DNA from: Bacteroidales bacterium UBA1176 | Lineage (GTDB): Bacteria; Bacteroidota; Bacteroidia; Bacteroidales; WCHB1-69 | DNA: 64,000 bases | NCBI GenBank assembly: GCA_002311645.1 | Contig: DBYW01000034.1 | Span: 43,227-107,226 of the forward strand | Direction of reading: 5' to 3' | Shown: one piece after another, positions 8,891 through 26,709 of the stretch | Layout of the letters: every line of letters starts with the position of its first letter | Numbering within the stretch: position 1 is the first letter of the stretch | Position numbers and translations under genes: made by a program | Notes under the pieces: generated by a model | The model's database searches: none | The model's input: the letters and a program-made list of their open reading frames with translations, nothing else | What the model was told of the DNA's origin: nothing

Positions 8891-8891
8891 A

Positions 8892-10837: not shown

Positions 10838-10898
10838 CATACATTTATATAATAGCATAAACATTAAAATTGAAATATAAATTAAAAACAATCTTATT

Positions 10899-13800
10899 AT
10901 GAAAAAAATCCTATTCCTTATTTTGGCAGTGCTGACAACGATGTTGGCCATGGCCCAGACGCCGGCCAAGATCAGTTATCAGGCTGTTGTGCGTGATGCC
11001 AACAACCGACTGCTGACCAACAGCGCAGTCGATGTACAGTTTCAGATACTGAACGCCTCCAGCGCAGTGCTTTATGACGAAACACACGCCAGCGTGAACA
11101 CCAATGCCAACGGTCTTTTTTCTTTATTTGTAGGTGACGGAACCCCGGCTTCCGGCACTTATTCCGCAGACGTATGGCGGAACGCCACGCAAATCCGCAC
11201 GGTGGTCACTTACAGTGGGGCCACTTTGGAAGACGTCACTGTCCCCCTAACAGCAGTTCCTTCCGCACTGTATGCCTTAGACCTTGATCCCACAAGTGTG
11301 GTTTACACCACTATCCGCAACGACAGTCTGGTATTGGCAACCGCCATCAACGACTTGGGTGACAAGGTGAAGGCCGACAGCACGGTGCTGCACGATGCGT
11401 TGATTGACACCGCCGCCGCCATCCGCAGCGAGATTCCTGTCGTGAATGACGGCACGCTCACCATCCAGATAAACGGCACAGATGCGGGTTCCTTCACGGC
11501 CAACCAAGGCACGGCTGAAGTCATCAACATTGATGTGCCCGCCGCACAGGTGAACGCCGACTGGGACGCCACGAGTGGTGCAGCAGAGATACTGAACAAA
11601 CCCGACCTGACCGTTTACGCCACTTTGACAAAACTCAACCAAGACAGTACTGCCCTCGGAGCTCTGATTGACAAAAACAAGCAGGCCATTATCGATACCG
11701 CCGCCGCCATCCGCAGCGAGATTCCCGTCGTGAATGACGGCACGCTCACCATCCAGATAAACGGCACGGATGCGGGCTCCTTCACCGCCAACCAAGGCAC
11801 GGCCGAGAACATCAACATCACCGTTCCGACGACTGTGGCCGAGCTCACTGATGCAGGCGACTATGCCTTGAAGGCTGGAAACAACCTGTTCACCGGAGAC
11901 AACGACTTCACCGGGGCCGTCACTGTGCCCAATGCCATCACGGACCTGCAGACCACATTGGCCAACCCGTGCACCCAGAACGCCGTGAATGTCTGCGACC
12001 TCCTCGCGGTGTTTGACAGTCTGGAGCGCCGAATTGCAAAACTTGAAACTGTCATCGGCACGGTTCTGGACAACTCGTCCACGCCCACCGTCATCACCTC
12101 TCCCGTCTCGGGAGTGTCAGCCACGGAGGCCATAGTCGGCGGCGAGCTGATTTCCGCGGGCACCGCCACCATCAGCGAGCGCGGCATTTGCCACAACACC
12201 ACCGGAACGCCTACCATCAGCGACACCAAGGTTGCCGTTTCCGGCACAGGCACGGGCGAATACACATCCACCCTCACCGGAATCATGGCCGGCACGACCT
12301 ATTATATCCGGGCCTACGTGACCACCACCGACAACAACACCTATTATGGAGAGGAGGTCACCTTCAACACGCTCCAGCCGACACTCACTGTCGTGTCAGA
12401 TACGACAAGTCCATTGGCCGTTTGCAGTGCTATGGACATCACCTTTACCGCCTCGATGACCAATGACGATCTTTCCCACTATTCTTTGAAGTGGTATGTG
12501 AACGATGCGGAACAGACCGGCGAAACCAACCCGACTTTCATCTTCAACCCAACCGCCACGAACAGATATATTATCAAATGTGAGGCCACCCGCATAGGTG
12601 CTACGGTAAACGGAAGTGACACTATGAACATCACGTTATACACCAGCCCCAGCATGACCTTGACGCGCCTTGAAGGCAATGCCGGCGATGATTTCGGCAA
12701 AGTGGAGATTTCCGACGTGATATGCGTGGCTTCTGCAGTATGGCTGCTTAACGGCGACTCGGTGGGCAACTGGACTTCGGGGAAAACCGCTATCCTGCCC
12801 ACGGGCACCTACACGGTCAACATCACGGGCACTCCCGGTTGCGGCACTGCAACCCAGACCGTTACCATCCGCACCAGCCCGGTATGCAGATCCTCTTTCT
12901 CCGTCGACAACCCGAATGAGACATTCTATACTCTTGCGGGCACAAGGTATGTGCAAACCATCAAGGACCACGAGAATAATGTATACAATGTGGCGCAAAT
13001 CGGAACCCGTTGCTGGACCCGCGAGAACATGCGCGCCACGACCTCGCCTTCCACTGGAAGATATTTCATATTGAATAATATAGCCATAAGGAATGAAGCC
13101 TCTAAGGCTGCTGTTTGGCCCAATTATGACTCCACGAGCGCCGTAACCACAAAATGGGGTGCGCAGTACAACTGGCAGGCTATGGTTGATGTCTATAACC
13201 CCAACTACGCTGAAGTTTGTAACACGAAACTACCTACGGATGTTCAAGTGCCTCATATCACCCATCCTCGTCGTGGTGTTTGCCCCGAAGGTTGGCATCT
13301 TCCTCAAAATGCCGACTTTGCAGATTTACGTACCAATTTTAATCAACAGGGACAATGGGCAGGAAATAATGCCGATGGAACAAATAGTTGGAGATCTGCA
13401 AATGGTAATTCTCCTGGTAATGTCAATTATGCTGATCGTAATGTATCAGGTTGGTCTGCTTTGCCAGCAGGAATGGACTGTAGAGACAATCAAAAGGAAT
13501 ATGCTATCTTTTGGTCTGGAACGGAGTATGGTGCGGCTTCTCAGAATTGGCGCGGATACCTTTATGCCATTCAATACAATTACGCTGCACAAGGTTGGGT
13601 AACACAAGACTTGTGGCATCATGAACTTTGTGCTGTTCGGTGTCTCCGCGACACGAAGGCCTCTCTGAACTTGTCAGTAAACCAGCCCTCCCCTGTCATA
13701 CCTGGTTCCCCCGTTACCTATACAGCCAGTATTGTAAACGGTGATGCTTCTGCTTATACTTTAACTTGGAAAGTGAATGATGTTGTTCAAAGTGGAGAGA

Positions 13801-14504
13801 CCTCTTCCACATTTACCACGAGTTTTACTAACAATGGTAACTATACGGTTACTTGTGAAGCAACTGATGGAACAAGTAACTTAAGTCAATGGATTAACAC
13901 CTCCATCCACGTCACCCCTGTGATTTCCACGAGTACAACTACGAATGTCACCTGCAACAGTGCCAAGGTGGATGCCAGTGTCACAGGATACCCCATTGTC
14001 GAGCGCGGAATTTGTTACAGCACAACGGCCAATCCTAACCCAAATACAAATACAAGGAAACCCTCCGGTTCGGGCGAAGGCAACTACACGTTCTCGATGA
14101 CCGGACTCGCCTCGAATACTACCTACTATGTGCGTGCTTATTGCATCAGTAGCGCGGGTATTACCTATGGCAATGAAATGAGTTTCACCACTGCGTCAAC
14201 CTCCACTCCGACTGTAACAACTGGCTCGGCGACGGATATTACAAGCACAGGAGCCACAGTAGGAGGCAATGTCACAGACGCAGGTTGCCCTGTTATCACC
14301 GCCCGCGGTGTTTGCTACAGCACCTCCAACACCACTCCTACCATTTCTGACACTAAGAAAGCTGCCGCATCAGCAAGCACTGGCGAATACACAGTATCAT
14401 TAACTGATCTAACCGCAGGCACCACTTATTACGTACGTGCTTACGCCACCAATAGTGCAGGAACGGTTTATGGTGATGTGATTACAATTACCACACTTCC
14501 GTAA
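10899..14504 (+). CDS. Large modular surface protein: tail-fibre-like N-terminus, duplicated 96-aa segment, Ig/FN3-like modules flanking an embedded FISUMP domain
   Basis: Signal peptide MKKILFLILAVLTTMLAMAQ. The duplicated segment reads LIDTAAAIRSEIPVVNDGTLTIQINGTDAGSFTANQGTAE. The FISUMP pattern is IGTRCWTRENM, WGAQYNWQA, CPEGWHLPQ, WSALPAGM, FWSGTEY, AVRCLRD. Three related modules end in TTYY(I/V)RAY...YG, and two related modules read Y(S/T)L(K/T)W(Y/K)VND. Confidence 0.85.
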   Translation: MKKILFLILAVLTTMLAMAQTPAKISYQAVVRDANNRLLTNSAVDVQFQILNASSAVLYDETHASVNTNANGLFSLFVGDGTPASGTYSADVWRNATQIRTVVTYSGATLEDVTVPLTAVPSALYALDLDPTSVVYTTIRNDSLVLATAINDLGDKVKADSTVLHDALIDTAAAIRSEIPVVNDGTLTIQINGTDAGSFTANQGTAEVINIDVPAAQVNADWDATSGAAEILNKPDLTVYATLTKLNQDSTALGALIDKNKQAIIDTAAAIRSEIPVVNDGTLTIQINGTDAGSFTANQGTAENINITVPTTVAELTDAGDYALKAGNNLFTGDNDFTGAVTVPNAITDLQTTLANPCTQNAVNVCDLLAVFDSLERRIAKLETVIGTVLDNSSTPTVITSPVSGVSATEAIVGGELISAGTATISERGICHNTTGTPTISDTKVAVSGTGTGEYTSTLTGIMAGTTYYIRAYVTTTDNNTYYGEEVTFNTLQPTLTVVSDTTSPLAVCSAMDITFTASMTNDDLSHYSLKWYVNDAEQTGETNPTFIFNPTATNRYIIKCEATRIGATVNGSDTMNITLYTSPSMTLTRLEGNAGDDFGKVEISDVICVASAVWLLNGDSVGNWTSGKTAILPTGTYTVNITGTPGCGTATQTVTIRTSPVCRSSFSVDNPNETFYTLAGTRYVQTIKDHENNVYNVAQIGTRCWTRENMRATTSPSTGRYFILNNIAIRNEASKAAVWPNYDSTSAVTTKWGAQYNWQAMVDVYNPNYAEVCNTKLPTDVQVPHITHPRRGVCPEGWHLPQNADFADLRTNFNQQGQWAGNNADGTNSWRSANGNSPGNVNYADRNVSGWSALPAGMDCRDNQKEYAIFWSGTEYGAASQNWRGYLYAIQYNYAAQGWVTQDLWHHELCAVRCLRDTKASLNLSVNQPSPVIPGSPVTYTASIVNGDASAYTLTWKVNDVVQSGETSSTFTTSFTNNGNYTVTCEATDGTSNLSQWINTSIHVTPVISTSTTTNVTCNSAKVDASVTGYPIVERGICYSTTANPNPNTNTRKPSGSGEGNYTFSMTGLASNTTYYVRAYCISSAGITYGNEMSFTTASTSTPTVTTGSATDITSTGATVGGNVTDAGCPVITARGVCYSTSNTTPTISDTKKAAASASTGEYTVSLTDLTAGTTYYVRAYATNSAGTVYGDVITITTLP
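11403..11808 (+). repeat. In-frame 288-bp-register duplication (copies 11403-11520 and 11691-11808)
   Basis: The two ~118-nt stretches are nearly identical by eye and differ only at a few mostly synonymous positions. The offset is 288 nt (96 codons). Confidence 0.85.
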
Positions 14505-14531
14505 AACATCTCGCAGACCACATAATACCAA

Positions 14532-14564
14532 GAGGTCGCCCAAAACGGACGACCTCTTTTTTTT
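14532..14564 (+). terminator. Rho-independent terminator after the 1201-aa gene
   Basis: GAGGTCGcccaaaacggaCGACCTC is followed by TTTTTTTT, 28 nt after the stop at 14504. Confidence 0.7.
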
Positions 14565-14576
14565 GATAATAAACCG

Positions 14577-14627
14577 TAGACTTTAGACCTTATAGTTCAT
14601 AGCCATAGTTCATAGCCAATAGCCAAC
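14577..14627. repeat. TAG-initiated short tandem words (TAGACTT TAGACCT .. TAGTTCA TAGCCA TAGTTCA TAGCCAA TAGCCAA)
   Basis: TAG occurs at 14577, 14584, 14593, 14600, 14606, 14613 and 14620, covering all three plus-strand frames. The last 15 nt (TAGCCAATAGCCAAC, 14613-14627) are identical to 58680-58694. Confidence 0.7.
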
Positions 14628-14631
14628 GTCA

Positions 14632-15237
14632 CTACTCCTTTTTCGGCAGTCTTTCGCGGACTTCTGCCAGAAATTCATCCACGTCAATGCCGAGGGTTTG
14701 GGCTTCCTGCACGAGCGTGGCTTCCTCTTCGGGGGTGATGACACCGTCTTCGATAATGGCCGCCACCTTGGTGTCCAGATCGTGGAGCAAATCCACCTTA
14801 TCCTTGGGGGCTTCTGCTGACTCCTGAAGCTTCTTGCCCGCCTTGATCAGCACCGGGAGGTTGGCCAGCGTGCCGAGCTTCTCGAGCGCCTTGCCACTCA
14901 TCTCTTTCGCCTTGTCAGCCGCATCACCCACCTTTTCAGCCAATTTGCTGTCCTTGATGTCCTCAACCATATCCTTGGCCTTGTCGCGGACATTTCCTGC
15001 AACATCCGTCACCTTTTCGGCAAACTCAGAGTTTTTGATGTCCTCGACCATATCCTTGGCCTTGTCGCGGACATTTCCCGCGGCATCCGTCACCTTTTCG
15101 GCAAATTCAGAGTTCTTGACATCTTCTACAGTGTCTTTCGCTTTCTCAGCGACTTTTTTTGAAGTGCTTTTGAACAAATCCAGGAATTTCTGGGAAAAAC
15201 TTTTCTTTTCGGAATTTGAATCACAATTTTCAGCCAT
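14632..15237 (-). CDS. Acidic/basic helical repeat protein (27-aa tandem repeats) with a TerB/DjlA-like C-terminal helix pair (weak)
   Basis: ORF track. The unit DIKNSEFAEKVTDVAGNVRDKAKDMVE repeats with an 81-bp period (14956-15117 on the plus strand). There is no signal peptide. Confidence 0.7.
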   Translation of the reverse strand: MAENCDSNSEKKSFSQKFLDLFKSTSKKVAEKAKDTVEDVKNSEFAEKVTDAAGNVRDKAKDMVEDIKNSEFAEKVTDVAGNVRDKAKDMVEDIKDSKLAEKVGDAADKAKEMSGKALEKLGTLANLPVLIKAGKKLQESAEAPKDKVDLLHDLDTKVAAIIEDGVITPEEEATLVQEAQTLGIDVDEFLAEVRERLPKKE

Positions 15238-15335
15238 GATTTTAAAGTTTAAATTAGAATTAGAAAAAGCAAAGATACATTTTTTTCAACTATGTTGGTG
15301 ATGAAAAAGTTTGTGAAGATATAGGACAAAATGTG

Positions 15336-15343
15336 TACCTTTG
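15336..15343 (+). promoter_or_regulatory. Bacteroidetes -7 box TACCTTTG for the acyltransferase/ATP-grasp operon
   Basis: Matches TAnnTTTG, 22 nt before the ATG at 15366. The extended string TGTACCTTTGCCGC is identical to that at 42205-42218 upstream of rluB. Confidence 0.45.
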
Positions 15344-15365
15344 CCGCGTTTTCTTTTCTGAATCT

Positions 15366-16109
15366 ATGTCCTATCTCAGACTGATACTACGCTTCCTCCG
15401 GTGCAACATCCTCCAGACGCTCCGCATCAACTTCAAGATGCTGCCCTGGCGGCAAGCCGTTCATCTACCCATTTTCGTCTATGGCCGTTTCAAACTCCGC
15501 GGCGCCCGCGGGCGTATCGTCCTCCAGCAGAAGGCAGAAGCCGAGATGATCATCATCGGCAAGAGGGACTACTACGTGGCCACCGCCATTCCCCAGAGCA
15601 TTTGGACCATCAACGGCACCCTCACTTTCGCCGGGCGGATGAAGTTCGCCCATGGCTCCTACCTGCTCGTGGCCGACGGCGCCGAACTCTCCTTCGGCAC
15701 GGGCGGCACCTACTGCGGCACCAACTTCAAGGTGATGTGCTTCGAGAAAATCACCATCGGCCACAACGTGCGCATGGCCTGGGACGTGCAGATTATGGAC
15801 AGCAGCTTCCACTATATCCAACTGATAGAGAAGGATAACGCCATACCTCCTCTGACGAAACCCGTGCTGCTGGCCGGCAACATCTGGATCGGCAACCGCA
15901 CCACCATTGCCAAGGGCGCACAGGTGCCCCAAGAGGTGATTATCGCCTCCAACAGCTTAGTGAACAAGGACTTCTCTTCTTTAGAGCCCTACTCACTCCT
16001 TGCCGGCGCACCCGCCACCCTCAAGGCCACCGGCATCCGACGCATCTGGGACGAGGAACAGCAAAGAGCGCTGGACCAACAATATCATTATCATAGAACC
16101 CACCTGTAA
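15366..16109 (+). CDS. Hexapeptide-repeat (left-handed beta-helix) acyl/acetyltransferase
   Basis: ORF 15333..16109 with the start moved to MSYLRL. Hexapeptide-like repeats: ITIGHNVRMAWDVQIMD, IWIGNRTTIAKGAQVPQEVIIASNSLV. Confidence 0.8.
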   Translation: MSYLRLILRFLRCNILQTLRINFKMLPWRQAVHLPIFVYGRFKLRGARGRIVLQQKAEAEMIIIGKRDYYVATAIPQSIWTINGTLTFAGRMKFAHGSYLLVADGAELSFGTGGTYCGTNFKVMCFEKITIGHNVRMAWDVQIMDSSFHYIQLIEKDNAIPPLTKPVLLAGNIWIGNRTTIAKGAQVPQEVIIASNSLVNKDFSSLEPYSLLAGAPATLKATGIRRIWDEEQQRALDQQYHYHRTHL

Positions 16110-16115
16110 AACAAC

Positions 16116-17276
16116 ATGTTACGCAAATCCATCACTTTCTGCCACCAACTGCTGCTGCTCGCCCGACGCTGCGCCAAGAGCCCCGCCCAACGGCTGCACG
16201 TCATCCGCGACTACTGCAAACTGTACCGGCAGAAAGGGCTGACAATGGAGGAGTACGACGAGTTTGAATTCGAAAAACGGTCGGAGCGGTTCCGGGACGA
16301 TTTCCTCGGCAAACACGAGCAGCGCCACTACCTGCGGCTGCTGAATCCCGAGAAATACTACATCCTGATGCGCAACAAGTACCTTACGCACAAAACGTTG
16401 GAAAACACCGGCATACGCAAGGCCCCTTTGTACGCCTACTACCAACCGGAAGGAGTGGTGACCCCCAACGATGAAATCGCCAACGATGTGGCCGGCCTGG
16501 TGCGCATCCTGCGCAACAAAGGGGTGACCGATTGTGTGGTGAAGGCCACCGAAAACTCGCACGGCGAGGGGGTGCGCCTCATCCAGGACATCCAATACGC
16601 AGGCGACGATGCCACCTTCTTGGACCATAACAGCCAAAGAGCATCCTTGTCGGCGATGCTCAAGCGGCAACCTCTTATCTTTGAAAGTGTTATTCATCAA
16701 ACCCGGCAGTTCGCCGCCTTCAATCCCTCCTCGGTGAACACCGTGCGCTTTATGACCGCCTTGTACCCCGACAACGAGGTCAAGATCATCGCCACCTTCA
16801 TCAAGATCGGACGGGCCGGCAGCATTGTGGACAACGCTGGCGACGGCGGCAACGTGGACGTGGCTGTCAACACGGACACGGGCGTGCTCCAATACGCCAT
16901 CCAGTACGACGGCTGGCGGAAAGTCACGGACATCGATTGCCATCCTGACACGCACGCACCCCTGAACGGCGTAGTCATCGAACACTGGGACGAGATCAAA
17001 GCCGAGGTGTGCCGTTTCCAACAGGCGCTCCCCTACTGCCGTGTGGCCGGCTGGGACATCGCCATCACCGACGAGGGGCCGCTCGTCATCGAGGTCAACG
17101 ACCTGTGGGACCGCACAGGGCAATACTTCATCCGCCGCGGTTGGCGCCCCGACATCCGCCAATGCTACCAAGCCTGGGAAAAATTAGTCCAAAAAGGCAC
17201 CATCCCCTACCCCTATTTCGGAAGAATACCGCAACAACTGAGCAACCGGCATCTCCAACATATTATTTCACAATAA
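16116..17276 (+). CDS. ATP-grasp amidoligase, sugar-transfer-associated type (PF14397-like), paralog 1
   Basis: Motifs shared by all three paralogs: ENSHGEGV, SSVNTVRF, IKIGRAGSIVDNAGDGG, VAGWDIAITDEGPLVIEVN. The family assignment is from memory of the Pfam ATPgrasp_ST pattern. Confidence 0.75.
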   Translation: MLRKSITFCHQLLLLARRCAKSPAQRLHVIRDYCKLYRQKGLTMEEYDEFEFEKRSERFRDDFLGKHEQRHYLRLLNPEKYYILMRNKYLTHKTLENTGIRKAPLYAYYQPEGVVTPNDEIANDVAGLVRILRNKGVTDCVVKATENSHGEGVRLIQDIQYAGDDATFLDHNSQRASLSAMLKRQPLIFESVIHQTRQFAAFNPSSVNTVRFMTALYPDNEVKIIATFIKIGRAGSIVDNAGDGGNVDVAVNTDTGVLQYAIQYDGWRKVTDIDCHPDTHAPLNGVVIEHWDEIKAEVCRFQQALPYCRVAGWDIAITDEGPLVIEVNDLWDRTGQYFIRRGWRPDIRQCYQAWEKLVQKGTIPYPYFGRIPQQLSNRHLQHIISQ

Positions 17277-17294
17277 TCTGTCATATCCTTTTCC

Positions 17295-18386
17295 ATGTTG
17301 AAACAAACCATCAAAAAAATCATCGATAAAATCCAGAAGCAGCGGGTCATCCGGTACTTTTACAAGCCTTTGAAGGCCAAGTACGACCGTCTGGAGGGCA
17401 AGAAGACGCTGACGCATGCCCAGAAAAAGGAGATCCGCGCCTTTTACAAGGAGCTCACCGGCGAGCGTATCCCGCTGGTATGGCACAAGTTCCTATACTC
17501 GCGCACCGGCATCTACTCGAAGAAATACCTGCCCACGAGCCTCTACAAGGCCACCCTGCTCTACCGCGCCAACCGCTACGGCTATCGCGACGCCTACGCC
17601 GACAAGAACATGGCGGAGGTCTATCTGCCCGACGTGAAGCATCCGGAAACCCTTCTGAAGAATATGAACGGCTACTTCTATGTAGGCGGCAAGCCTGTGA
17701 CCAAAGAGGAGGCCGTCGCCTTCGCCCAGAACTTGGACGATGTCATCATCAAGCCCTCGTTGGAGAGTCACGGCGACGGCGTGCACCGCCTGACTGTGCG
17801 GGAGGGCGTCACCAATGTGGACGGACTCACCATCGGGAAGCTCTTCGACCGCTACAAGGAGGACTTTCTGATACAGCGCCGAGTCCACCAGCACGAGCGG
17901 ATGAACGCCCTCAACGACTCGTCGGTGAACACCATCCGCATCTTCACCTACCGCAGGGGGATGGAGATCATCGTGCTCTACACCGTCATCCGCATCGGGC
18001 GCGCGGGCAGCGACATCGACAACGAGAGCGCCGGCGGCATCAGCGCCAAAATCAACCCCGACGGCACGCTGGCCCGCTATGCCTTCGGCAACGTAGGCGC
18101 CGACAATGTGGAGAAAACCGACAGCGGCATCACCCTTGAGGGATACGCCGTGCCCTCCTACCACGAGGCCGTGGAGACCGTGAAGCGCCTGCACCTGCAG
18201 TTGCCTTTCTTCAACCTCATCGGCTGGGACGTGGCCATCGAGGAGAGCGGCGAGCCCGTGCTCATCGAGTGGAACATCTGCACTGAGCTGAGCCAGTCGG
18301 CCAACGGTCCCGCCTTCGGCGAACATACGGAAAGCATCATCCGCGAGCTGATGCAGAAACCCAACCATCAAAACCCAAACTGGTAG
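17295..18386 (+). CDS. ATP-grasp amidoligase, paralog 2
   Basis: ESHGDGV, SSVNTIRI, IRIGRAGSDIDNESAGG, IGWDVAIEESGEPVLIEWN. Starts 18 nt after paralog 1. Confidence 0.75.
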   Translation: MLKQTIKKIIDKIQKQRVIRYFYKPLKAKYDRLEGKKTLTHAQKKEIRAFYKELTGERIPLVWHKFLYSRTGIYSKKYLPTSLYKATLLYRANRYGYRDAYADKNMAEVYLPDVKHPETLLKNMNGYFYVGGKPVTKEEAVAFAQNLDDVIIKPSLESHGDGVHRLTVREGVTNVDGLTIGKLFDRYKEDFLIQRRVHQHERMNALNDSSVNTIRIFTYRRGMEIIVLYTVIRIGRAGSDIDNESAGGISAKINPDGTLARYAFGNVGADNVEKTDSGITLEGYAVPSYHEAVETVKRLHLQLPFFNLIGWDVAIEESGEPVLIEWNICTELSQSANGPAFGEHTESIIRELMQKPNHQNPNW

Positions 18387-18388
18387 TT

Positions 18389-19528
18389 ATGGCAAATCAA
18401 TCCGCCCGAAACAGTAACGCACTCTATCACATCTTCAAGCAGACAGCGCTCTACGGGAAGATGCTGCGTTGGGCTTGGTTGCAGGAGACGCGCATCCGCG
18501 AGGAGGAGAAGCGTATTTTCACCCGCGAGGCGCGGCAGCAGTTTGACAAAGGCGTGCCCCACGGCTCGTTTGCCGACTACAAGGATGCTCTGCGCCGCCA
18601 TCGTGTCACCTACCAGGAGTATATGTACGGCTACGAGTACTGGAAACTCGACGAGACGGCGCGCGACGCTTTTGTCTCCCGCTCGGAGATGCAGTGCATC
18701 TACCGCAAGATTGTCACCCGCGAGGTGCGCCAGACCTTCCGCAACAAGACCGCCTTCCTGGAACGCTTCGCCCCCTTTGTGCACCGCGAGTGGCGAATGG
18801 CCGACGGGTGCTCCTTGGAGGAGTTCCGCGCCTTTGTGGAGGCGCACGATGTCATCGCCAAGCCCTTAGACGGTACCTGCGGCGAGGGCATCTTCAAGAT
18901 TTGCGCCGGTGAGGTGAAGGATTGGGGCGTCCTGTTTGCCCGTTGTCGCGACCGGCACCTGTTGTTAGAGGAGTGTGTGCGGGCCTGCGAGCCCATAGAG
19001 CGGTTTCATCCCGCCTCGCTCAACACCATCCGCGTAGTCACGCTTTCCCAAGGCGACAAGTTCACCGTGTTCGGGGCCCTGTTGCGGATGGGCGCGGGCG
19101 GCAGCGTCATCGACAACACCCATGCCGGCGGCGTCTTCGCCCCCATTAATCCCGAGACGGGGTGCATTGACACACCCGCCATCGACGCACACAACCACCG
19201 TTACGAGCGCCATCCCGACACGGACATTCCCATTGTGGGTTTCACCATCCCTTGTTGGGACCAAATTGTGGAAACTTGCCGCCAAGCTGCCTTAGTGATG
19301 CCCGACCTCCGTTTTGCGGGCTGGGACCTCTGTCCGCTCGCCGACGGCCGCATTGAGCTCATTGAGGGCAACCACGCCCCCGACTTCGACGGCGGACTGC
19401 AGGCCCCCCTCAAGGTCGGCGTCAAGCAGAAACTGCAAAATGCCGCCCAAGACATCTTTGGCATCAATGTACTCGAACTCATCAAAACCAACAGCATCAC
19501 CTACAACCACTACGAAGGAATGCTATAA
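18389..19528 (+). CDS. ATP-grasp amidoligase, paralog 3
   Basis: GTCGEGI, ASLNTIRV, LRMGAGGSVIDNTHAGG, FAGWDLCPLADGRIELIEGN. Starts 2 nt after paralog 2. Confidence 0.75.
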   Translation: MANQSARNSNALYHIFKQTALYGKMLRWAWLQETRIREEEKRIFTREARQQFDKGVPHGSFADYKDALRRHRVTYQEYMYGYEYWKLDETARDAFVSRSEMQCIYRKIVTREVRQTFRNKTAFLERFAPFVHREWRMADGCSLEEFRAFVEAHDVIAKPLDGTCGEGIFKICAGEVKDWGVLFARCRDRHLLLEECVRACEPIERFHPASLNTIRVVTLSQGDKFTVFGALLRMGAGGSVIDNTHAGGVFAPINPETGCIDTPAIDAHNHRYERHPDTDIPIVGFTIPCWDQIVETCRQAALVMPDLRFAGWDLCPLADGRIELIEGNHAPDFDGGLQAPLKVGVKQKLQNAAQDIFGINVLELIKTNSITYNHYEGML

Positions 19529-19551
19529 ACGTAAAAAATAAAAACAACAAA

Positions 19552-20565
19552 ATGAAGATATTAGTCACCGGAGGCGCCGGTTTCATTGGCTCCCACACCA
19601 TCGTAGAGCTCTATCACGCCGGACATGACGTGGTGGTGGTGGACAACCTGTGCAATTCCAGCCGCGAGTCCCTGAAGCGAGTGGCCGAGTTGGTGGGGGT
19701 GGCGGAAATCCCCTTCTTTGAGGCGGACATCCGCGACCGTTCGGCCCTCGACCACGTGCTGACGGAGCATCCCTGCGAGGCCTGCATCCACTTTGCGGGA
19801 CTGAAGGCCGTAGGCGAATCGGTGACCAAGCCGTGGGAGTATTACGAAAACAACGTCAGCGGCACACTGGTTTTGCTCGACGTATTGCGGCAGCATCATT
19901 GCTGCAACCTCATCTTCTCCTCTTCCGCCACAGTCTATGGCGACCCGGCGGAGGTGCCCATCACGGAAGCGTGCCCCAAGGGCCGTTGTGCCAGCCCTTA
20001 CGGACAGACCAAGAGTATGGTGGAAGAGATTTTGATGGATATGCAAAAGGCCGACCCCTTATGGAACATTGTCCTGTTGCGCTATTTCAACCCCGTCGGC
20101 GCGCATCCCTCCGGACAGATTGGGGAAAACCCCAACGGCATTCCCAACAACCTGATGCCCTATATCACGCAAGTGGCCATCGGCAAGCGACCTCAGCTGG
20201 GCATCTTCGGCAACGATTATGACACGCCCGACGGCACAGGCGTACGCGACTATATCCACGTGGTGGACCTCGCCCGCGGCCACGTGGCAGCCCTCACCGC
20301 CATTGAACGGAAGTGTGGACTGGCCATCTACAACCTCGGCACCGGACAGGGCTACTCAGTGCTGGATGTGGTGAAGGCCTTTGAGAAGAGCACCGGCATC
20401 CCCATCCCATATCATTTCGAACCCCGTCGTCCCGGTGACATCGACTCTTATTTTTCCAACCCCGCCAAAGCCGCCCGCGAGCTGCACTGGACCGCCCAAT
20501 ACGGACTGGAGGATATGTGCCGCGACTCCTGGAACTGGCAAAAACAAAACCCCGAAGGATTTTAA
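19552..20565 (+). CDS. galE: UDP-glucose 4-epimerase
   Basis: MKILVTGGAGFIGSH Rossmann motif, SPYGQTK (YxxxK), and full-length similarity to GalE by eye. Confidence 0.93.
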   Translation: MKILVTGGAGFIGSHTIVELYHAGHDVVVVDNLCNSSRESLKRVAELVGVAEIPFFEADIRDRSALDHVLTEHPCEACIHFAGLKAVGESVTKPWEYYENNVSGTLVLLDVLRQHHCCNLIFSSSATVYGDPAEVPITEACPKGRCASPYGQTKSMVEEILMDMQKADPLWNIVLLRYFNPVGAHPSGQIGENPNGIPNNLMPYITQVAIGKRPQLGIFGNDYDTPDGTGVRDYIHVVDLARGHVAALTAIERKCGLAIYNLGTGQGYSVLDVVKAFEKSTGIPIPYHFEPRRPGDIDSYFSNPAKAARELHWTAQYGLEDMCRDSWNWQKQNPEGF

Positions 20566-20596
20566 CCGTAAAAATATAACCGAATAACCCATAACA

Positions 20597-21874
20597 ATGA
20601 AATCTACCAAAATCGCCGTCATCGGCCTCGGATATGTCGGGCTGCCGCTGGCACGCCTGTTTTCCACCAAATTCCCCACCGTGGGCTTCGACTTGAACCA
20701 AGCCCGCGTGGACGCCCTTATGGCAGGACACGACGCCACCTTGGAGGTGGACGACACCTTGCTGCAAGAGGCCATCTCCAAACACGGATTCCGCTGCACC
20801 ACCTGTCTGGACGACATCCGCGACTGCAATTTCTACGTGGTGGCCGTGCCCACCCCTGTCGATGAGAACAACCGTCCTGACCTGAAACCCTTGTGGGGCG
20901 CGTCGGAGACTGTAGGCAAGGTCATCTCCAAGGGCGATGTCGTGGTCTACGAGAGTACCGTCTATCCCGGCGTCACCGAGGAGGAATGCCTCCCCGTCGT
21001 GGAGAAAACCAGCGGACTCACTTTCAACACCGACTTCTTCGCCGGATACAGTCCCGAGCGTATCAACCCGGGCGACAAGCAGCACACCGTCGAAAAAATC
21101 CGGAAGGTCACGTCCGGCTCCACGCCCGAAATCGCGGATTATGTGGACGAAGTCTACAACTCCGTCTTGGTGAACGGCACGCACAAGGCCCCCTCCATCA
21201 AGGTGGCCGAGGCCTCCAAGATCATCGAAAACTCGCAGCGCGACGTGAACATCGCCTTCATGAACGAGTTGGCCAAGATCTTCAACGCCATGGGCATCGA
21301 CACGCACGATGTCATCGAGGCCGCCGCCTCCAAGTGGAACTTCATCAAACTCAGTCCCGGACTGGTGGGCGGCCACTGCATCAGCGTCGATCCCTACTAC
21401 CTCATCCAGAAGGCCCAAGTGTATGGCGTGCTGCCCCGCGTGATGAGCAACGCCCGCCGCCTCAACGATGGCATGGGCGCATACGTGGCCAACCAGACCG
21501 TCAAATGCATGAACAAGAAGGGCGTGATGGTCAAGGACGCGAAGATTCTCATCCTCGGCGTCACCTTCAAGGAGAACTGCCCCGACATCCGCAACACCAA
21601 GGTCGTCGACATCTACCACACCCTCGCCGAATACACAAACAACATCACCATTTACGACCCTTGGGCAGACAGCGAGAAAGTTCGAGAAGAGTATGGGATT
21701 GAAATTCATAATTCACAATGCAGAATGCAGAATGGAGAGTATGATGCTGTGATATTGGCAGTAGCGCACAAGGAGTTTTTGGATATGGACATCCGCTCTC
21801 TTGTCCGGAAGGGCGGTGTCGTATATGACGTCAAGGGCATCCTGCCCCGCGACATCATCGATTCAAGACTGTAA
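20597..21874 (+). CDS. Nucleotide-sugar 6-dehydrogenase of the TviB/WbpO/CapL type (UDP-HexNAc dehydrogenase family)
   Basis: KIAVIGLGYVGLPLA Rossmann motif, catalytic-Cys motif LVGGHCISVDPYYL, ~425 aa length. Confidence 0.88.
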   Translation: MKSTKIAVIGLGYVGLPLARLFSTKFPTVGFDLNQARVDALMAGHDATLEVDDTLLQEAISKHGFRCTTCLDDIRDCNFYVVAVPTPVDENNRPDLKPLWGASETVGKVISKGDVVVYESTVYPGVTEEECLPVVEKTSGLTFNTDFFAGYSPERINPGDKQHTVEKIRKVTSGSTPEIADYVDEVYNSVLVNGTHKAPSIKVAEASKIIENSQRDVNIAFMNELAKIFNAMGIDTHDVIEAAASKWNFIKLSPGLVGGHCISVDPYYLIQKAQVYGVLPRVMSNARRLNDGMGAYVANQTVKCMNKKGVMVKDAKILILGVTFKENCPDIRNTKVVDIYHTLAEYTNNITIYDPWADSEKVREEYGIEIHNSQCRMQNGEYDAVILAVAHKEFLDMDIRSLVRKGGVVYDVKGILPRDIIDSRL

Positions 21875-21894
21875 CTCTATCTTGTCAAAACCTA

Positions 21895-23364
21895 TTGATC
21901 TTAATGTTAAAAAAAATCCTCATTATCATCTTTACAACGACTTTCTCCATAGCATACGGACAAGAGCAAAAAACACCCATTTCTCCTTGTTCATTCGGAA
22001 TGGAGGAAGCCAAGACCGACATTGAGCGCTTCTATGCGCTCTACAACACCCACGTGGCCGCCATAGAGCAGGGGGTCGATGTGGACTACGACGGCATCGA
22101 CCGGCTTAACATCGAGATCCCTGCCGACGCCAAGCCTATCCCGCTCACCTCATACAACATCTTCCACAGCTTGGTTCTGAACGTCAGGAACAACAGCAAA
22201 AACTTCTATCTTTTTCGCTTGTCCCAGCCAACAGACAGCATTGATGTGTCGAAAGAACAGATCGACGGAGGAGATTTCGGAACGGTAAAAGAACTGCGCA
22301 CAGGCAAGTTTCTCGTAGTCCTGCAAGACAACCGCCTTTGGGTGGACCAACGTCAGGGCTACAAATACGGACATACCCGCAAGGACATACTCCTGATAGA
22401 GGACGGCAAGGCTGCGAACCAGCCCATCATGCCTTACAACACCCCGGAAACACAACCTGCGGTGAGTTACTGTCCCGTCACGGACGACTTCAAAGTGATT
22501 TCCGACATCGTCATCAACCGTACCCCTGACTCGAAATTCAAAACCTATTGTTTCGATGTCAAAAACCAATACAATGTCGAGTTGTGCGACATCATCATCA
22601 ACACCCCGAAAAGTGAGCTTGTCGCCGATAACGCCATTCGCATCACCAACTGTGCCGATGTCACGCTTGAATATGTTAAAATCAACGAAACATACTCGCG
22701 CAAGGACTATTACGGCTACGGCATCCTGATGGACAACGTTTGGGATTCGAAAATCAGAAACCTCACCTCCCATTCTGACTGGGGCATCTTCGGCACCAAC
22801 AACATTAGCGAGGCCCTATTGGAGAATTGCAATATAAACCGCTACGACATACACTGTTACGGAAGAAATGCAACCATCAGAAATTGCACTTTCGACAATC
22901 TCTACAACCAATTCTCCTCCATGTACGGTCAACTTAAATTCGAGCGTTGCATCTTCAACAAACATATACCTGTACTCATCGAGTCCACCTACAATGCCTA
23001 TACTCCTTTCGATATCGAGTTCGACCGATGTGTCTTCAACATCAATGGCCGGTGCAACTATTTAGTGGATGCCCGCACACTGTCCGACATACGCAACAGC
23101 CGCCCTGAGGTGGCCGACAAGAACCTGCCCAACATCACGCTCAACAATTGTATCGTCAATCTCTTCGAAAATACCAACCGCCTGTACATGTTTCATTTCA
23201 CCCACGTCCATTACACGGACACCGTGGGGTATTTGGAACAAATCTATATCGACAATCTGAAAGTCCATGGCGGGAAAGTCGTACTCAAAGTGGGCAACAA
23301 GGACTTCAAGCACAACAAGCTCACATTTCCCATGTACAATCAGGAGGTGGGCGATAAGAAATAG
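21895..23364 (+). CDS. Secreted protein with parallel beta-helix-like repeats, function unknown
   Basis: Signal peptide MILMLKKILIIIFTTTFSIAYGQ. Repeated N-C-x-(I/V) turns: ITNCADVTLEYVKIN, LENCNINRYDIHCYGRNATIRNCTF, LNNCIVNL. Confidence 0.6.
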   Translation: MILMLKKILIIIFTTTFSIAYGQEQKTPISPCSFGMEEAKTDIERFYALYNTHVAAIEQGVDVDYDGIDRLNIEIPADAKPIPLTSYNIFHSLVLNVRNNSKNFYLFRLSQPTDSIDVSKEQIDGGDFGTVKELRTGKFLVVLQDNRLWVDQRQGYKYGHTRKDILLIEDGKAANQPIMPYNTPETQPAVSYCPVTDDFKVISDIVINRTPDSKFKTYCFDVKNQYNVELCDIIINTPKSELVADNAIRITNCADVTLEYVKINETYSRKDYYGYGILMDNVWDSKIRNLTSHSDWGIFGTNNISEALLENCNINRYDIHCYGRNATIRNCTFDNLYNQFSSMYGQLKFERCIFNKHIPVLIESTYNAYTPFDIEFDRCVFNINGRCNYLVDARTLSDIRNSRPEVADKNLPNITLNNCIVNLFENTNRLYMFHFTHVHYTDTVGYLEQIYIDNLKVHGGKVVLKVGNKDFKHNKLTFPMYNQEVGDKK

Positions 23365-23463
23365 GAATTAATGGTTGTTAAAAAGAGTTAAAAAGAATTC
23401 TTGGAAGATTTTTCCTTGTTCTTTTTTTTACTTTTGCCTTTTTTATCAAAATATAAGCCGTAT

Positions 23464-25662
23464 ATGGATAAAGTTACAATACTTTCTTACGATCGCATCT
23501 ACAAAAACTTTATTGAGGACAAATATCTCCATGGGTATGACGAATACTATTTCCGAAACCAGCAGGTGAAGATCCCCGAGGGGGGCTGGCGTCATCTGCG
23601 GTCCGACGAGGTGGAGGATTTGGTGAAGAACGCCAACACGGCCACCAACTGGGACGACATCTGGGTGACGGATGATTTTGACACCAGCATGGTGATGAAC
23701 AACCGTTTCTTCGGGATGGTGCGCATCGGGCGCATCCGCAACGAGATTCTGCAATATCACGACCTGCGCATCCCCGTGGGCATCACGGGCAGCAGCATCG
23801 TATCGTGCGACATTGGCGACGACGCGGCCATCCACGACGTGCACTATATGGCCAACTACATCATCGGCGACCGTTGCATCCTCTTCAACATCCAGGAGCT
23901 CTCCACCACCGACCACTCCAAATTTGGGAACGGCATTCTGAAAGAGGGTGAGCCTGAAGAAGTTCGGGTCTGGTTAGAGGTGATGAACGAGGTTGGTGGA
24001 CGAGGCATCCTGCCCTTCGACGGCATGATCACCTCCGATGCGTATCTATGGGCCAAATACCGCGATGACAAAAAATTGCAGGAGCGTCTGTTTGAGATAA
24101 CGCAAAACGCCTTCGACAACCGCCGAGGCTATTACGGCACCATTGACGAGGGGTGTGTCATCAAGAACTGCTGGATCCTCAAGGATGCCAAGATTGGGCC
24201 GTGCGCCTACATCAAAGGGGCCTCGAAGTTGAAGAATGTGACTATTAACTCTTCGGAGGAGGAGCCAACGCAAATTGGTGAAGGAGTCATTTTGGTCAAC
24301 GGCATCACCGGCTACGGCTGTCATATTTTCTACTCCGTGGTGGGTACTCGCTTCGTGTTGGGCGATAACTGCAACCTTAAATACGGTGCGCGCGTCATCT
24401 ATTCGGTATTGGGCGACAACTCGACCATCTCTTGCTGCGAGGTCCTCAACAACCTCATCTTCCCCTCGCATGAGCAGCACCATAACAACTCGTTCCTCAT
24501 CTCGGCCTGCGTGATGGGACAGAGCAACATGGCCGCCGGCGCCACCATCGGCTCCAACCACAACAGCCGCGCCACGGATGGTGAAATCGTTGCCAACCGA
24601 GGCTTCTGGCCCGGCCTCTGCTCCTCTGTGAAGCATTCCTCCAAGTTCGCCTCCTTTACGCTCCTCTCCAAGGCCGACTACCCCAACGAACTCAACATCA
24701 TGCTTCCCTTCAGCTTGGTGAGCAACGACACCGCGCATGACGAGCTTCATGTCATGCCCGCCTACTGGTGGATGTACAACATGTACGCCATCGCGCGCAA
24801 CACCTCCAAATACCAGAAACGCGACAAGCGCAAGCGCCGCATCCAGCACATCGAGTTCGAAACCTTCGCCCCCGACACCATGGAGGAGGCCATCGAGGCC
24901 CGCAAACTTCTGGAGGCATGGACAGGCAAAGCGCTCCTGCGCGCGCAAGGGGACTCCTGCGACAACCTCTCCATGGAAGAGCTGCGCATGGTTGGCCGCA
25001 AGCTGCTGAACAATGACCCCGAGGCCGCCAAGAGGCTGGAGGTGTTCGGCGAGAACATGGAACATGGCAAACGCAAGGTGCGCATTCTCAAGCACTGCGA
25101 AGCCTATCACGCATACGGTGACATGCTGCTCTACTACGGTGTCAAGAACATGGTGAAATATATGGACGAGCACCCAGGCATCACACTCGAGGTCCTCTGC
25201 GACATGCTGCGGAGCAAGGAACAGCGCGAGTGGGTCAATTTGGGCGGACAGTTGGTGAACGGCGACGATGTGGACGCCCTGCGCCATGACATCAATCACG
25301 GCATTCTCAACACCTGGACCGACATCCACCGCCGCTATGATGAAATCTGGGAGCGCTACCCGCTCGAGAAGCTTCGCCATGCCTTCTCTTCCCTGCGGTT
25401 CCTCTATCATGAAAAATATGGCATAATGACGCGGGAACTTTGGGTGAAATTGCTCCAGAAGGCCGCCGATGTGCAGCAATTCATTTGCGACCAAGTATAT
25501 ATCTCCCGAAAGAAGGACTACGACAACCCCTTCCGCAACGCCACTTTCCGCAATGAGGAGGAGAAAATCGCCGTCATCGGCGAACTGGATGAAGTGAGCT
25601 TCGTCAAACAAATCCGGGAAGAGACGGAAAAGAACATCCAGTTGTTTAAGAAGTATATGTAA
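23464..25662 (+). CDS. Conserved Bacteroidota protein with hexapeptide-like repeats (DUF4954-like, assigned from memory)
   Basis: ORF 23401..25662 with the start moved to MDKVTILSY. A TACTTTTG box lies at 23429-23436. The long ORF has the codon style of neighbouring core genes and lies immediately upstream of nagB. Confidence 0.6.
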   Translation: MDKVTILSYDRIYKNFIEDKYLHGYDEYYFRNQQVKIPEGGWRHLRSDEVEDLVKNANTATNWDDIWVTDDFDTSMVMNNRFFGMVRIGRIRNEILQYHDLRIPVGITGSSIVSCDIGDDAAIHDVHYMANYIIGDRCILFNIQELSTTDHSKFGNGILKEGEPEEVRVWLEVMNEVGGRGILPFDGMITSDAYLWAKYRDDKKLQERLFEITQNAFDNRRGYYGTIDEGCVIKNCWILKDAKIGPCAYIKGASKLKNVTINSSEEEPTQIGEGVILVNGITGYGCHIFYSVVGTRFVLGDNCNLKYGARVIYSVLGDNSTISCCEVLNNLIFPSHEQHHNNSFLISACVMGQSNMAAGATIGSNHNSRATDGEIVANRGFWPGLCSSVKHSSKFASFTLLSKADYPNELNIMLPFSLVSNDTAHDELHVMPAYWWMYNMYAIARNTSKYQKRDKRKRRIQHIEFETFAPDTMEEAIEARKLLEAWTGKALLRAQGDSCDNLSMEELRMVGRKLLNNDPEAAKRLEVFGENMEHGKRKVRILKHCEAYHAYGDMLLYYGVKNMVKYMDEHPGITLEVLCDMLRSKEQREWVNLGGQLVNGDDVDALRHDINHGILNTWTDIHRRYDEIWERYPLEKLRHAFSSLRFLYHEKYGIMTRELWVKLLQKAADVQQFICDQVYISRKKDYDNPFRNATFRNEEEKIAVIGELDEVSFVKQIREETEKNIQLFKKYM

Positions 25663-25677
25663 TTAAATATCAATAAT

Positions 25678-26469
25678 ATGCGAGTTATCATTGAAAAAAA
25701 CTACGAGGAGATGTCGCGTTGGGCTGCCAATCACATCGTCGAACGCATCAAAGCCTTCAACCCCACAGAGAAGAAACCCTTCGTATTGGGACTGCCCACC
25801 GGCTCCACACCCATCGGCACCTACCGCGAATTAGTGCGCCTGCATCAGGAGGGAAAGATCTCTTTCAAGAACGTGGTCACCTTCAATATGGACGAATACG
25901 TCAACATCGCGGAAGACCATCCTGAGAGCTACCACAGCTTCATGTGGAACAACTTCTTCCGTCACATCGACATCCTCAAAGACAATGTCAACATCTTGAA
26001 CGGCAACGCTAAGAACTTAGAGTCGGAGTGCGCCCGCTATGAGGCCAAGATCCAGTCGTACGGGGGCATCGACCTCTTTATGGGCGGCATCGGCCCCGAC
26101 GGGCACATCGCCTTCAACGAGCCGGGCTCGTCGCTGACCTCCCGCACGCGCGTGAAGACCTTGACCACCGATACCATCATCGCCAACTCCCGCTTCTTCG
26201 ACAACGACGTGAACAAGGTGCCCAAGACCGCCCTCACGGTCGGTGTGGGCACGGTGATGGACGCCCGCGAGGTGATGATCCTGGCCAACGGACACAACAA
26301 GGCCCGCGCCCTGGCGCACGCCATCGAGGGCGCCGTCAGCCAAATGTGGACTGTCAGCGTGCTGCAAATGCACCCCAAGGGCATCATCGTCTGCGACGAT
26401 GCCGCCTGCGACGAGATGACTTACGGCACCGTCAAGTATTTCAAGGATATCGAAAAGGAGAACCTGTGA
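25678..26469 (+). CDS. nagB: Glucosamine-6-phosphate deaminase
   Basis: [36 protein letters not shown]. Confidence 0.95.
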
Positions 26470-26497
26470 AGAGAATTAAGAATTAAGAATTGAGAGA
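26467..26497 (+). repeat. Heptad repeat starting at the nagB stop codon: TGAagaG AATTAAG AATTAAG AATTGAG
   Basis: Stops at 26467 (TGA, genuine), 26477 (TAA), 26484 (TAA) and 26491 (TGA) fall in frames 0, +1, +2 and 0. A G8 run follows (26498-26505). Confidence 0.7.
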
Positions 26498-26514
26498 GGG
26501 GGGGGCTTCCGCCT

Positions 26515-26695
26515 GTCCCCGTTAGGGGACACATATCTGTAGAAAACGGGTGCCCACGCGTGTTTCGAAATCCCCGACAGGGGATTCATTGAGACAGTTT
26601 ATCATATTGTAACATATTGATATGCAACCTCCTTACGGGGTTGTGGCGGGTTGTACACATTCCTTGGCTACAGATATGGATCCCCTAACGGGGAC
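26515..26695. repeat. ~180-bp element with 28-bp terminal inverted repeats and four small GC hairpins (MITE-like element or structured RNA)
   Basis: Left end GTCCCCGTTAGGGGACACATATCTGTAG (26515-26542). The reverse complement of the right end (26668-26695) is GTCCCCGTTAGGGGATCCATATCTGTAG, matching at 26 of 28 positions. Internal palindromes are ATCCCCgacaGGGGAT (26570-26585) and CAACCtccttacGGGGTTG (about 26625-26643). It sits between the convergent nagB and SNF transporter genes. Confidence 0.55.
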
Positions 26696-26709
26696 GAGAA
26701 GATTCCACC

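Follow-up and report, generated by a model that had tools for sequence, protein, structure and literature searches.

Three old ATPgrasp_ST ligase types in a rumen-type Bacteroidales genome and their probable place in a dispersed surface-polysaccharide locus

The stretch of DNA analyzed here, a window of 64,000 nucleotides from Bacteroidales bacterium UBA1176, contains a cassette of six tightly packed genes that encode a left-handed beta-helix (LbH) acyltransferase-like protein, three paralogous ATP-grasp ligases (AG1, AG2, and AG3), the epimerase GalE, and a dehydrogenase resembling TviB and WbpO. The original prediction took this cassette to be an orphan pathway that makes a UDP-HexNAc uronate and amidates its carboxyl group. 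Our analysis confirms the ligases as a set of three old, separately conserved types, and it places the cassette as the middle piece of a locus that is split three ways in this genome and that probably directs the synthesis of a surface polysaccharide. The window corresponds to C47:43227-107226 of a 2.66-Mb, 58-contig assembly (G000), which is a metagenome-assembled genome (MAG) with a completeness of 93%. Its closest relatives are the rumen Bacteroidales MAGs RUG125, RGIG8237, and RGIG9679, so a rumen origin is probable for the window as well. Throughout, compared genomes are labeled G followed by a number, loci or assemblies L, and contigs C.

All six open reading frames (ORFs) were located on the + strand with the positions, sizes, and spacing first reported for them, the gaps from the LbH gene to tviB being 6, 18, 2, 23, and 31 nt. 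The flanks were also described correctly, with a repeat protein encoded on the opposite strand on one side and a secreted beta-helix protein on the other. What did not stand is the end of the run at 21874, since the genes for the beta-helix protein, a DUF4954 protein, and NagB carry the tight same-strand run on to 26469, with nagB as the final co-directional gene. This nine-gene order is kept in close relatives; it is complete in L001/L005 (G093) and L004/L006 (G096), and the short contigs L002 and L003/L007 (G121) hold part of it. The placement of nagB after DUF4954 is seen in L001, L004, and L036. When compared with three species-level relatives, all nine genes are under purifying selection, with ratios of nonsynonymous to synonymous substitution rates (dN/dS) of 0.02-0.2.

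Membership of the three paralogs in PF14397 (ATPgrasp_ST) is secure, as all of them score far above the Pfam gathering threshold of 31.4 bits (Table 1), and the motifs SxNT(I/V)R, G(R/A)(A/G)GSx(I/V)DNxxxGG, and GWD that had been quoted for them are present. They share pairwise identities of 25-29% and are the only PF14397 copies in the whole genome. An AlphaFold2 (AF2) model of AG1, with a predicted local distance difference test (pLDDT) score of 88.8, consists of an all-helical N-terminal domain of ~100 residues followed by an ATP-grasp core, which a Foldseek comparison matches to RimK, Ddl, LysX, PurK, and biotin carboxylase with a probability of 1.0. The model contains no signal peptide and no membrane segment. 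In an alignment of 54 sequences that covers all three paralog types, K143, R211, D314, E326, and N328 (AG1 numbering) are invariant in all three clades, and in an hhalign comparison with E. coli RimK (83% probability) K143, R211, D314, and E326-x-N328 align with the VVK, IR, GVD, and MEVN segments. The Lys/Arg/Asp/Glu-x-Asn set of ATP-grasp catalytic residues, on which the proposed ligase activity depends, is thus kept in full.

In a maximum-likelihood tree built from 51 family members of 24 loci, AG1, AG2, and AG3 fall into three separate, strongly supported clades (support of 100/100 for AG1 and 100/100 for AG3), each of which includes orthologs from other species and genera. The tree rules out a recent tandem duplication of the ligases and settles the question of their age in favor of an ancient set. 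Constraint within the run is strongest on AG2, which has 97-99% amino acid identity to its orthologs and a dN/dS of 0.016-0.055. Its synonymous divergence (dS) of ~0.23 can be set beside values of 0.33-0.9 in the adjacent genes and may reflect very strong constraint, or else a sweep or recombination that recently affected AG2 alone. AG3 is an accessory paralog restricted to this species group, apart from copies 50-60% identical to it in the long ligase arrays of G117 and G145; it is absent between AG2 and galE in L036.

The observation that no glycosyltransferase (GT), Wzx, or Wzy gene adjoins the cassette holds within the window; it does not hold as evidence for an orphan pathway. A set of genes that ends with the flippase gene (piece A) stops just 130 bp outside the window, so the orphan appearance is a product of the window edge, and a further set (piece C) lies on contig C49. 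In piece A, the best Wzx of the genome (C47:41645-43096) follows RmlA, a Ugd-type dehydrogenase, and a 411-residue AlaDh_PNT_N protein on the same strand. When searched against the PDB, the 411-residue protein matches the lysine-ketoglutarate reductase (LKR) domain of human AASS (E 5e-34) and yeast saccharopine dehydrogenase (E 3e-12). Piece C encodes a TupA-like ATP-grasp ligase (PF14305, E 6e-36), a Wzy-GT4 protein, and a GT2. Wzx, Wzy, GTs, and precursor genes are therefore all in the genome, in three places, and their orthologs are contiguous in relatives. The cassette (piece B) is in essence one part of a capsule-type locus, an outcome that the original prediction itself had named as refuting it, and its orphan status falls; orthology suggests that the three pieces function as one.

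The contiguous arrangement is seen on both sides of the ligases. Orthologs of the dehydrogenase-Wzx pair (61-71% identical) lie immediately upstream of LbH-AG1 or AG1 in G066, G139, G124, G028, and L036, and the pair is also found directly 5' of the ligases in other genera (L018, L019, and L020; 57-71% identical overall). Across the genus, Wzx lies within ~2.5 kb of the ligases in 17 of the 29 genomes that have a Wzx ortholog at least 64% identical. Downstream of AG2, G066 and G124 carry the genes for a TupA-like ATP-grasp ligase, a 767-residue Wzy-GT4 fusion, and a GT2, and these are the orthologs of piece C (62-72% identical; for the GT2, 66% to G066 and 43% to G124). The conserved partners of the ligases across the genus are the LKR-like or Octopine_DH dehydrogenase, Wzx, LbH or CapA-like proteins, the TupA ligase, Wzy-GT4, and GT2. 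L036 carries the contiguous order Octopine_DH-Wzx-LbH-AG1-AG2-galE-tviB-p485-DUF4954-nagB-GT2-Wzy/GT4, which is an intermediate state.

In the present genome, 15,495 bp separate Wzx from the LbH gene, a distance that is 5.8 kb in the closest relative, G093, whereas at least 17 genus members have no such gap. In addition to the genes listed in Table 1, the intervening block encodes LRR_5 and DUF6383 proteins, an S8 protease with a type IX secretion system (T9SS) tail, a 421-residue protein, and two Fib_succ_major proteins. G066 carries the same T9SS-cargo genes on the opposite side of the dehydrogenase-Wzx pair, which argues for a local rearrangement. A second group of genomes within the genus (G105, G115, G118, G126, G137, and G055) has its Wzx (64-65% identical) on a contig other than that of the AG-TupA-Wzy-GT4 genes, and the flippase half of the locus seems to have parted from the ligase half more than once.

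Piece C (within L040, C49:102236-112506) is flanked by housekeeping genes and comes directly after genes for a HisJ-family PHP phosphatase, a beta-lactamase-fold protein, and rho, and an IS110-family transposase, which may have been involved in the relocation of this piece, lies 5 kb upstream. We considered the phosphatase as a counterpart of Cj1435 of the Campylobacter jejuni capsule locus and rejected it. It is unlinked to TupA in relatives, and its score exceeds the cut-off for the HisJ family, which makes a housekeeping gene located at the breakpoint the probable reading. Genes for polysaccharide synthesis, such as rmlB, rmlC, and rmlD, lie scattered across the genome, which also has two Bac_transf genes and a single Glycos_transf_4 gene elsewhere. 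No counterpart of the CapA-like gene or the Octopine_DH of the relatives was found in it. The genes scanned around the three pieces include no UpxY/UpxZ and no Wza/Wzc; no genome-wide search for these was made.

Table 1 Genes and other features of the cassette and of the two linked pieces (window positions unless a contig is named)
Feature	Position	Strand	Remarks
Intervening block	1-15237		Separates the two halves (piece A and cassette); GC content 0.471, compared with 0.557 in piece A and 0.57-0.60 in the cassette
LytTR/HTH regulator	1-1035	-	Pfam; part of intervening block
201-residue repeat protein	14632-15237	-	Part of intervening block
Candidate Bacteroidetes-type -7 box TACCTTTG	15336-15343	+	22 nt 5' of ATG 15366; consensus match only
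LbH O-acetyltransferase-like protein	15366-16109 (ORF from 15333/15366)	+	247 residues from ATG 15366
AG1, ATPgrasp_ST ligase	16116-17276	+	386 residues; PF14397 E 4e-42, 144.9 bits
AG2, ATPgrasp_ST ligase	17295-18386	+	363 residues; PF14397 E 4e-37, 128.6 bits
AG3, ATPgrasp_ST ligase	18389-19528	+	379 residues; PF14397 E 8e-48, 163.5 bits
GalE, UDP-glucose 4-epimerase	19552-20565	+	TIGR01179 and PRK10675 above cut-off
TviB/WbpO-like UDP-N-acetylhexosamine 6-dehydrogenase	20597-21874	+	425 residues; NF011729 best model
Secreted right-handed beta-helix protein	21904-23364	+	486 residues; signal peptide; AF2/Foldseek
DUF4954 LbH protein	23464-25662 (start 23401 or 23464)	+	PF16314 E 6e-64; DUF6819
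NagB, glucosamine-6-phosphate deaminase	25678-26469	+	TIGR00502 439 bits, above cut-off
Piece A: RmlA, Ugd, LKR-like dehydrogenase, Wzx	C47:38102-43096	One strand	Ends 130 bp 5' of window base 1
Piece C: TupA-like ATP-grasp, Wzy-GT4, GT2	C49:108324-112506		Contiguous; orthologs of the genes that follow AG2 in relatives

The identities first given to the sugar enzymes are supported, with GalE and the TviB-like dehydrogenase both above the cut-offs of their TIGRFAM models, and the roles proposed for them fared less well. GalE scores 460 bits on TIGR01179 (cut-off 262) and 501 bits on PRK10675, is 58% identical to E. coli GalE, contains the GGAGFIGS and Y-G-Q-T-K motifs, and is present as a single copy in the genome. 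In E. coli GalE, the gatekeeper residue Y299 shuts out N-acetylated substrates, and the residue at this position here is also a tyrosine. Furthermore, the protein scores only 66.6 bits on the TviC model NF011728 (cut-off 760), so that it does not qualify as a TviC/WbpP-type enzyme. Given the gatekeeper, GalE should supply UDP-Gal and not epimerize UDP-HexNAc uronates, and its proposed part as the C4 epimerase of such a uronate is unlikely. The gatekeeper differs among GalE orthologs, with a Cys in L036 (L036:12221-13258) and a Ser in L038 (L038:1690-2706), and these loci are accordingly predicted to differ in whether they can process N-acetylated UDP-sugars.

The TviB-like enzyme has the three-domain UDPG_MGDP_dh architecture and scores 382 bits on TIGR03026 (cut-off 190). 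NF011729 is by far its best model at 520.7 bits, which is below the cut-off of 592, and its nearest PDB entries are UDP-ManNAc and NDP-GalNAcA dehydrogenases. With GalE unsuited to HexNAc uronates, the likely product of this dehydrogenase is UDP-GlcNAcA. The coupling of the ligases to tviB and galE, on which the original prediction was built, is weak: tviB and galE adjoin the ligases in this clade and in L036 only, and in most relatives the ligase module is found with neither gene next to it. In G124, G139, G043, and G028, the tviB ortholog (81-86% identical) is on a contig other than that of the ligases and lies beside DUF4954, accompanied in G124 by nagB and the beta-helix gene as well. The synteny in relatives and the gatekeeper of GalE together argue against a dedicated partnership of galE and tviB with the ligases, which we had considered. 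The adjacency of tviB-like and DUF4954 genes recurs (loci L033, L034, L035, and L028) and is seen even at ~51% and 30% identity, in G083, G109, and G113.

The 486-residue protein encoded after tviB has no Pfam match, and its AF2 model (pLDDT 92.4) is a right-handed beta-helix whose top Foldseek matches are the Klebsiella K64 tailspike, a K1 capsule lyase, LKA1 gp49, and AP22 gp54 (E 7e-12 to 6e-7). Its gene is kept between tviB and DUF4954 in L036 and adjoins tviB in G124. On the basis of the modeled fold, the protein fits a self-trimming enzyme for a uronate-containing polymer. The dS of this gene relative to the relatives is 1.4-1.9, far above that of its neighbors, which suggests exchange or fast turnover. 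A paralog is present at C48:26672-27958 of the same genome, and the family is large in rumen Bacteroidales, with 726 matches, many of which are 640-680 residues long.

DUF4954 was found in 32 of 121 sampled Bacteroidales genomes, nearly all of them of different genera, and its members fall into two score classes; the copy in the window belongs to a divergent subgroup of ~730-760 residues. In G124, nagB lies beside DUF4954 on the - strand. A literature search on DUF4954 returned nothing relevant, and the conserved neighbors point to a functional link between this protein and UDP-HexNAc(A) metabolism.

The LbH protein has no Pfam match at E <= 0.001, and against the Mac, WbbJ, and WcaF O-acetyltransferase models of NCBIfam it gives E-values of ~1e-9, all far below the cut-offs. 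In the PDB it matches 2wlc (OatWY; E 3e-10, residues 127-224) and 3jqy (NeuO; E 2e-7). Its orthologs are the usual upstream partner of the ligases and lie directly 5' of AG1 in G066, G139, G083, L025, and L036. The ATG at 15366 is the likely start of the gene, as distant orthologs align only from residue 9-15 and the candidate -7 box lies just upstream of this codon. Matches to the -7 box consensus number 38 in the window, compared with 28 expected. A scan of 14400-27000 for sigma-70 promoters and terminators stayed at the background level, and the sigma-70 model is unsuited to Bacteroidota. A second Bacteroidetes-type -7 box, TACTTTTG, is located at 23429-23436, just 5' of the likely DUF4954 start at 23464, and may be an internal promoter for DUF4954-nagB.

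From the gene architecture, the orthology, the intact catalytic residues, and the purifying selection described above, the explanation that we favor, with moderate confidence, is a dispersed Wzx/Wzy-dependent surface-polysaccharide locus for an acidic polymer that carries amide-linked amino-acid or opine-type groups. The family-wide order would be an opine-type dehydrogenase, Wzx, LbH or CapA-like proteins, one to eight ATPgrasp_ST ligases, a TupA-like ligase, Wzy and GT4 (fused or separate), and GT2. Rearrangements would have cut this locus into pieces A, B, and C in the present genome and its closest relatives, leaving piece B as a cassette with the extra AG3 that has been joined to the block galE-tviB-depolymerase-DUF4954-nagB, itself conserved separately. 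UDP-GlcA and UDP-GlcNAcA would come from Ugd and the TviB-like enzyme, and a few GTs would build a short lipid-linked repeat. AG1-3 and TupA would then convert carboxylates to acyl-phosphates and form amides with amino acids; the likeliest site of this step is the growing lipid-linked glycan and not the UDP-sugar.

The placement of this step follows from the sole characterized precedent. In the C. jejuni capsule, GlcA at the non-reducing end of the growing chain receives its amide from the TupA-like ATP-grasp domain of Cj1438, and only then is the next sugar attached (PMC11800379). By this precedent ligation on the glycan is the more likely course, and the same work on the C-terminal domain (Cj1438C) does not favor ligation at the nucleotide-sugar level, as had been proposed for the cassette (PMC11800379). 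The LKR-like dehydrogenase could reductively couple an amino group with a 2-oxo acid, giving an opine-type group and with it new carboxyls for ligation, which could explain the presence of several ligases for few sugars. The LbH protein would O-acetylate the glycan, Wzx would flip the unit, Wzy would polymerize it, and the secreted beta-helix protein would trim the uronate-containing polymer. The general idea of an amide-decorated surface glycan is supported to the extent that it fits the contexts in which homologs are found (UDP-sugar dehydrogenases, CapA-like proteins, TupA, and opine-type dehydrogenases), and the chemistry itself is proposed by analogy.

A bolder form of this proposal, which we put forward tentatively and regard as possible at best, is that the polymer is an undescribed surface polymer of rumen Bacteroidales in which a uronate repeat bears a branched peptide or opine side chain. 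Such a chain would be built stepwise and non-ribosomally by the three PF14397 ligases, each with a distinct specificity, together with TupA and the LKR-like enzyme, with up to ten ligases contributing in relatives. If true, this would make PF14397 a family of chain-extending amide ligases rather than simple uronate amidases, and the dispersed layout would show that the pathway works in the absence of gene clustering.

Several observations weigh against the dispersed-locus explanation. What the ligases act on, in which direction they ligate, and what they produce are all inferred, and a literature search on ATPgrasp_ST and PF14397 returned no paper on the family. The family lacks a characterized member or solved structure, so that membership says nothing firm about substrate; a sequence search against the PDB gave no significant match for AG1, AG3, or the C49 TupA-like protein. 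A WecA-like initiating transferase like those of L037 and L038 was not found in this 93% complete genome, and the ligase module occurs with no adjacent uronate-forming dehydrogenase in L025 and L037. Finally, the ligase-rich locus of G117 has no glycosyltransferase among its top families, and its organic-acid enzymes indicate that carboxylates other than uronates may be substrates.

The G117 locus spans 40 kb (L008/L009, G117:C12:36001-76000) and contains seven PF14397 and three other ATP-grasp genes, along with Wzx, two Octopine_DH, two DegT, CapA-like, AMP-binding, and KAS III genes and genes for PrpD, fumarase, a C-C lyase, and a 2-hydroxyacid dehydrogenase. From its gene content, it looks like an assembly line for decoration with organic acids and amino acids. 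G145:C80 (L010) is another very ligase-rich locus.

Two alternatives concern the scattered state of the genes. The split could have inactivated the pathway and left the cassette heading for loss, a view for which one can cite the division of the locus into three pieces, the IS110 transposase 5 kb from piece C, and the scattering of the polysaccharide genes. Of the explanations considered we give this the least credence, because the ORFs are all intact and under the purifying selection noted above, the split layout is common to several independently assembled MAGs, and the separation of Wzx from the ligases recurs in the second genus group. Alternatively, the six genes could work autonomously, making an amidated and acylated UDP-HexNAc uronate for lipopolysaccharide (LPS), a protein O-glycan, or a T9SS anchor, independent of the Wzx/Wzy pieces. 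The candidate promoter of the cassette, its intactness in close relatives where no GT adjoins it, the translational proximity of tviB and galE to AG3, the position of KdtA 8 kb downstream, and the flanking T9SS cargo genes would all suit such a role. This possibility seems unlikely to us. The LbH-AG1-AG2 set lies between Wzx and TupA/Wzy-GT4/GT2 in most relatives, the adjacency of tviB and galE is limited to this clade and L036, the only GalE has a Tyr gatekeeper, and the characterized precedent works on a glycoside, not on UDP-GlcA.

The remaining alternatives concern the chemistry. N-Aminoacyl amino sugars are known in O-antigens, and the ligases could have the reverse polarity, activating the carboxyl of an amino acid or organic acid and attaching it to the amino group of an amino sugar, or extending a chain of this kind. 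None of the three pieces encodes an aminotransferase, the locus has two linked uronate-forming dehydrogenases, and the lyase-like beta-helix protein is linked to tviB, which leaves this alternative rather unlikely even though several homologous loci contain DegT-type sugar aminotransferases, some ligase loci have no UDP-sugar dehydrogenase nearby, and the PrpD, fumarase, C-C lyase, and 2-hydroxyacid dehydrogenase of G117 could make di- or tricarboxylic acids. It is also conceivable that the product is not a glycan, in which case the ligases, an opine-type dehydrogenase, and CapA-like proteins would make a peptide-like or polyamide polymer or a small metabolite for export by a MOP-family transporter, with the sugar genes as mere neighbors. 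The name TupA derives from teichuronopeptide, CapA-like (PGA_cap) genes are interleaved with ligase genes in relatives, and the G117 locus combines ten ATP-grasp genes with the lack of a GT among its top families. Against this, the ligases of most loci lie directly between Wzx and the Wzy-GT4 fusion and GT2, the present genome has no CapA-like gene, and the modeled AG1 lacks a signal peptide or membrane segment, so we consider a non-glycan product very improbable.

With the unusual look of the cassette explained by the window edge, which is a methodological lesson in itself, the remaining interest lies in the uncharacterized ligase family. PF14397 is a large family of amide ligases that is very common in the polysaccharide loci of rumen and gut Bacteroidales, and knowing its products would explain part of the surface chemistry that shapes interactions among gut phages, hosts, and microbes. 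The window adds that the paralog types are old and separately conserved, that their core partners are an opine-type dehydrogenase, Wzx, TupA, and Wzy-GT4 and not TviB and GalE, and that the locus tolerates splitting.

PF14397 was reportedly defined by Iyer et al. in 2009, by comparative genomics, as the 'sugar-transfer associated ATP-grasp' family (ATPgrasp_ST), and the association with polysaccharide genes seen here is what this name predicts. The closest functional parallel is Cj1438 of the C. jejuni HS:2 capsule, which, with Cj1435-1437, represents a soluble ATP-grasp activity encoded in a capsule locus that forms an amide at the C6 carboxylate of GlcA. As in that system, the locus of the present genome includes a TupA-family ligase (on C49) and Ugd. 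It differs in that AG1-3 belong to PF14397 and not PF14305 and are stand-alone proteins with a helical N-terminal domain, in that there are four ligases instead of one, and in that it has opine-type dehydrogenases where the Campylobacter system has serinol-phosphate and ethanolamine-phosphate enzymes. Peptide ligases of the RimK, LysX, and glutathione synthetase type share with AG1 the fold and the same Lys/Arg/Asp/Glu-x-Asn nucleotide- and Mg-binding residues; however, identities are just 11-15%, TM-scores are 0.4-0.54, and the helical domain of ~100 residues in AG1 replaces the N-terminal alpha/beta pre-ATP-grasp domain.

The pairing of a TviB-like dehydrogenase with an adjoining short-chain dehydrogenase/reductase (SDR) 4-epimerase recalls TviB/TviC of the Vi antigen and WbpO/WbpP of P. 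aeruginosa O6. In contrast to those pairs, the epimerase here is a genuine GalE whose gatekeeper is Tyr, the dehydrogenase does not reach the equivalog cut-off, and the pairing is not conserved in relatives. For the LbH protein, the nearest solved relatives are OatWY, NeuO, and the maltose/galactoside O-acetyltransferases (E 3e-10 to 2e-5), LbH enzymes that act on sugars or polysaccharides, whereas the protein in the window aligns over its C-terminal ~100 residues only and its N-terminal ~100 residues have no match. The chemistry that we predict also has counterparts among known glycans. The O-antigens of Proteus and Providencia contain N-(1-carboxyethyl)-amino-acid amides of uronic acids, and the exopolysaccharide of Vibrio alginolyticus is reported to belong to this kind of glycan, in which uronic acids bear amides of amino acids (PMC4663550). 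Uronic acids, amide-linked amino acids, and an opine-forming dehydrogenase make up the chemistry predicted here. The locus is thus another case of a recurrent and biochemically unexplored kind, and not a new type of system.

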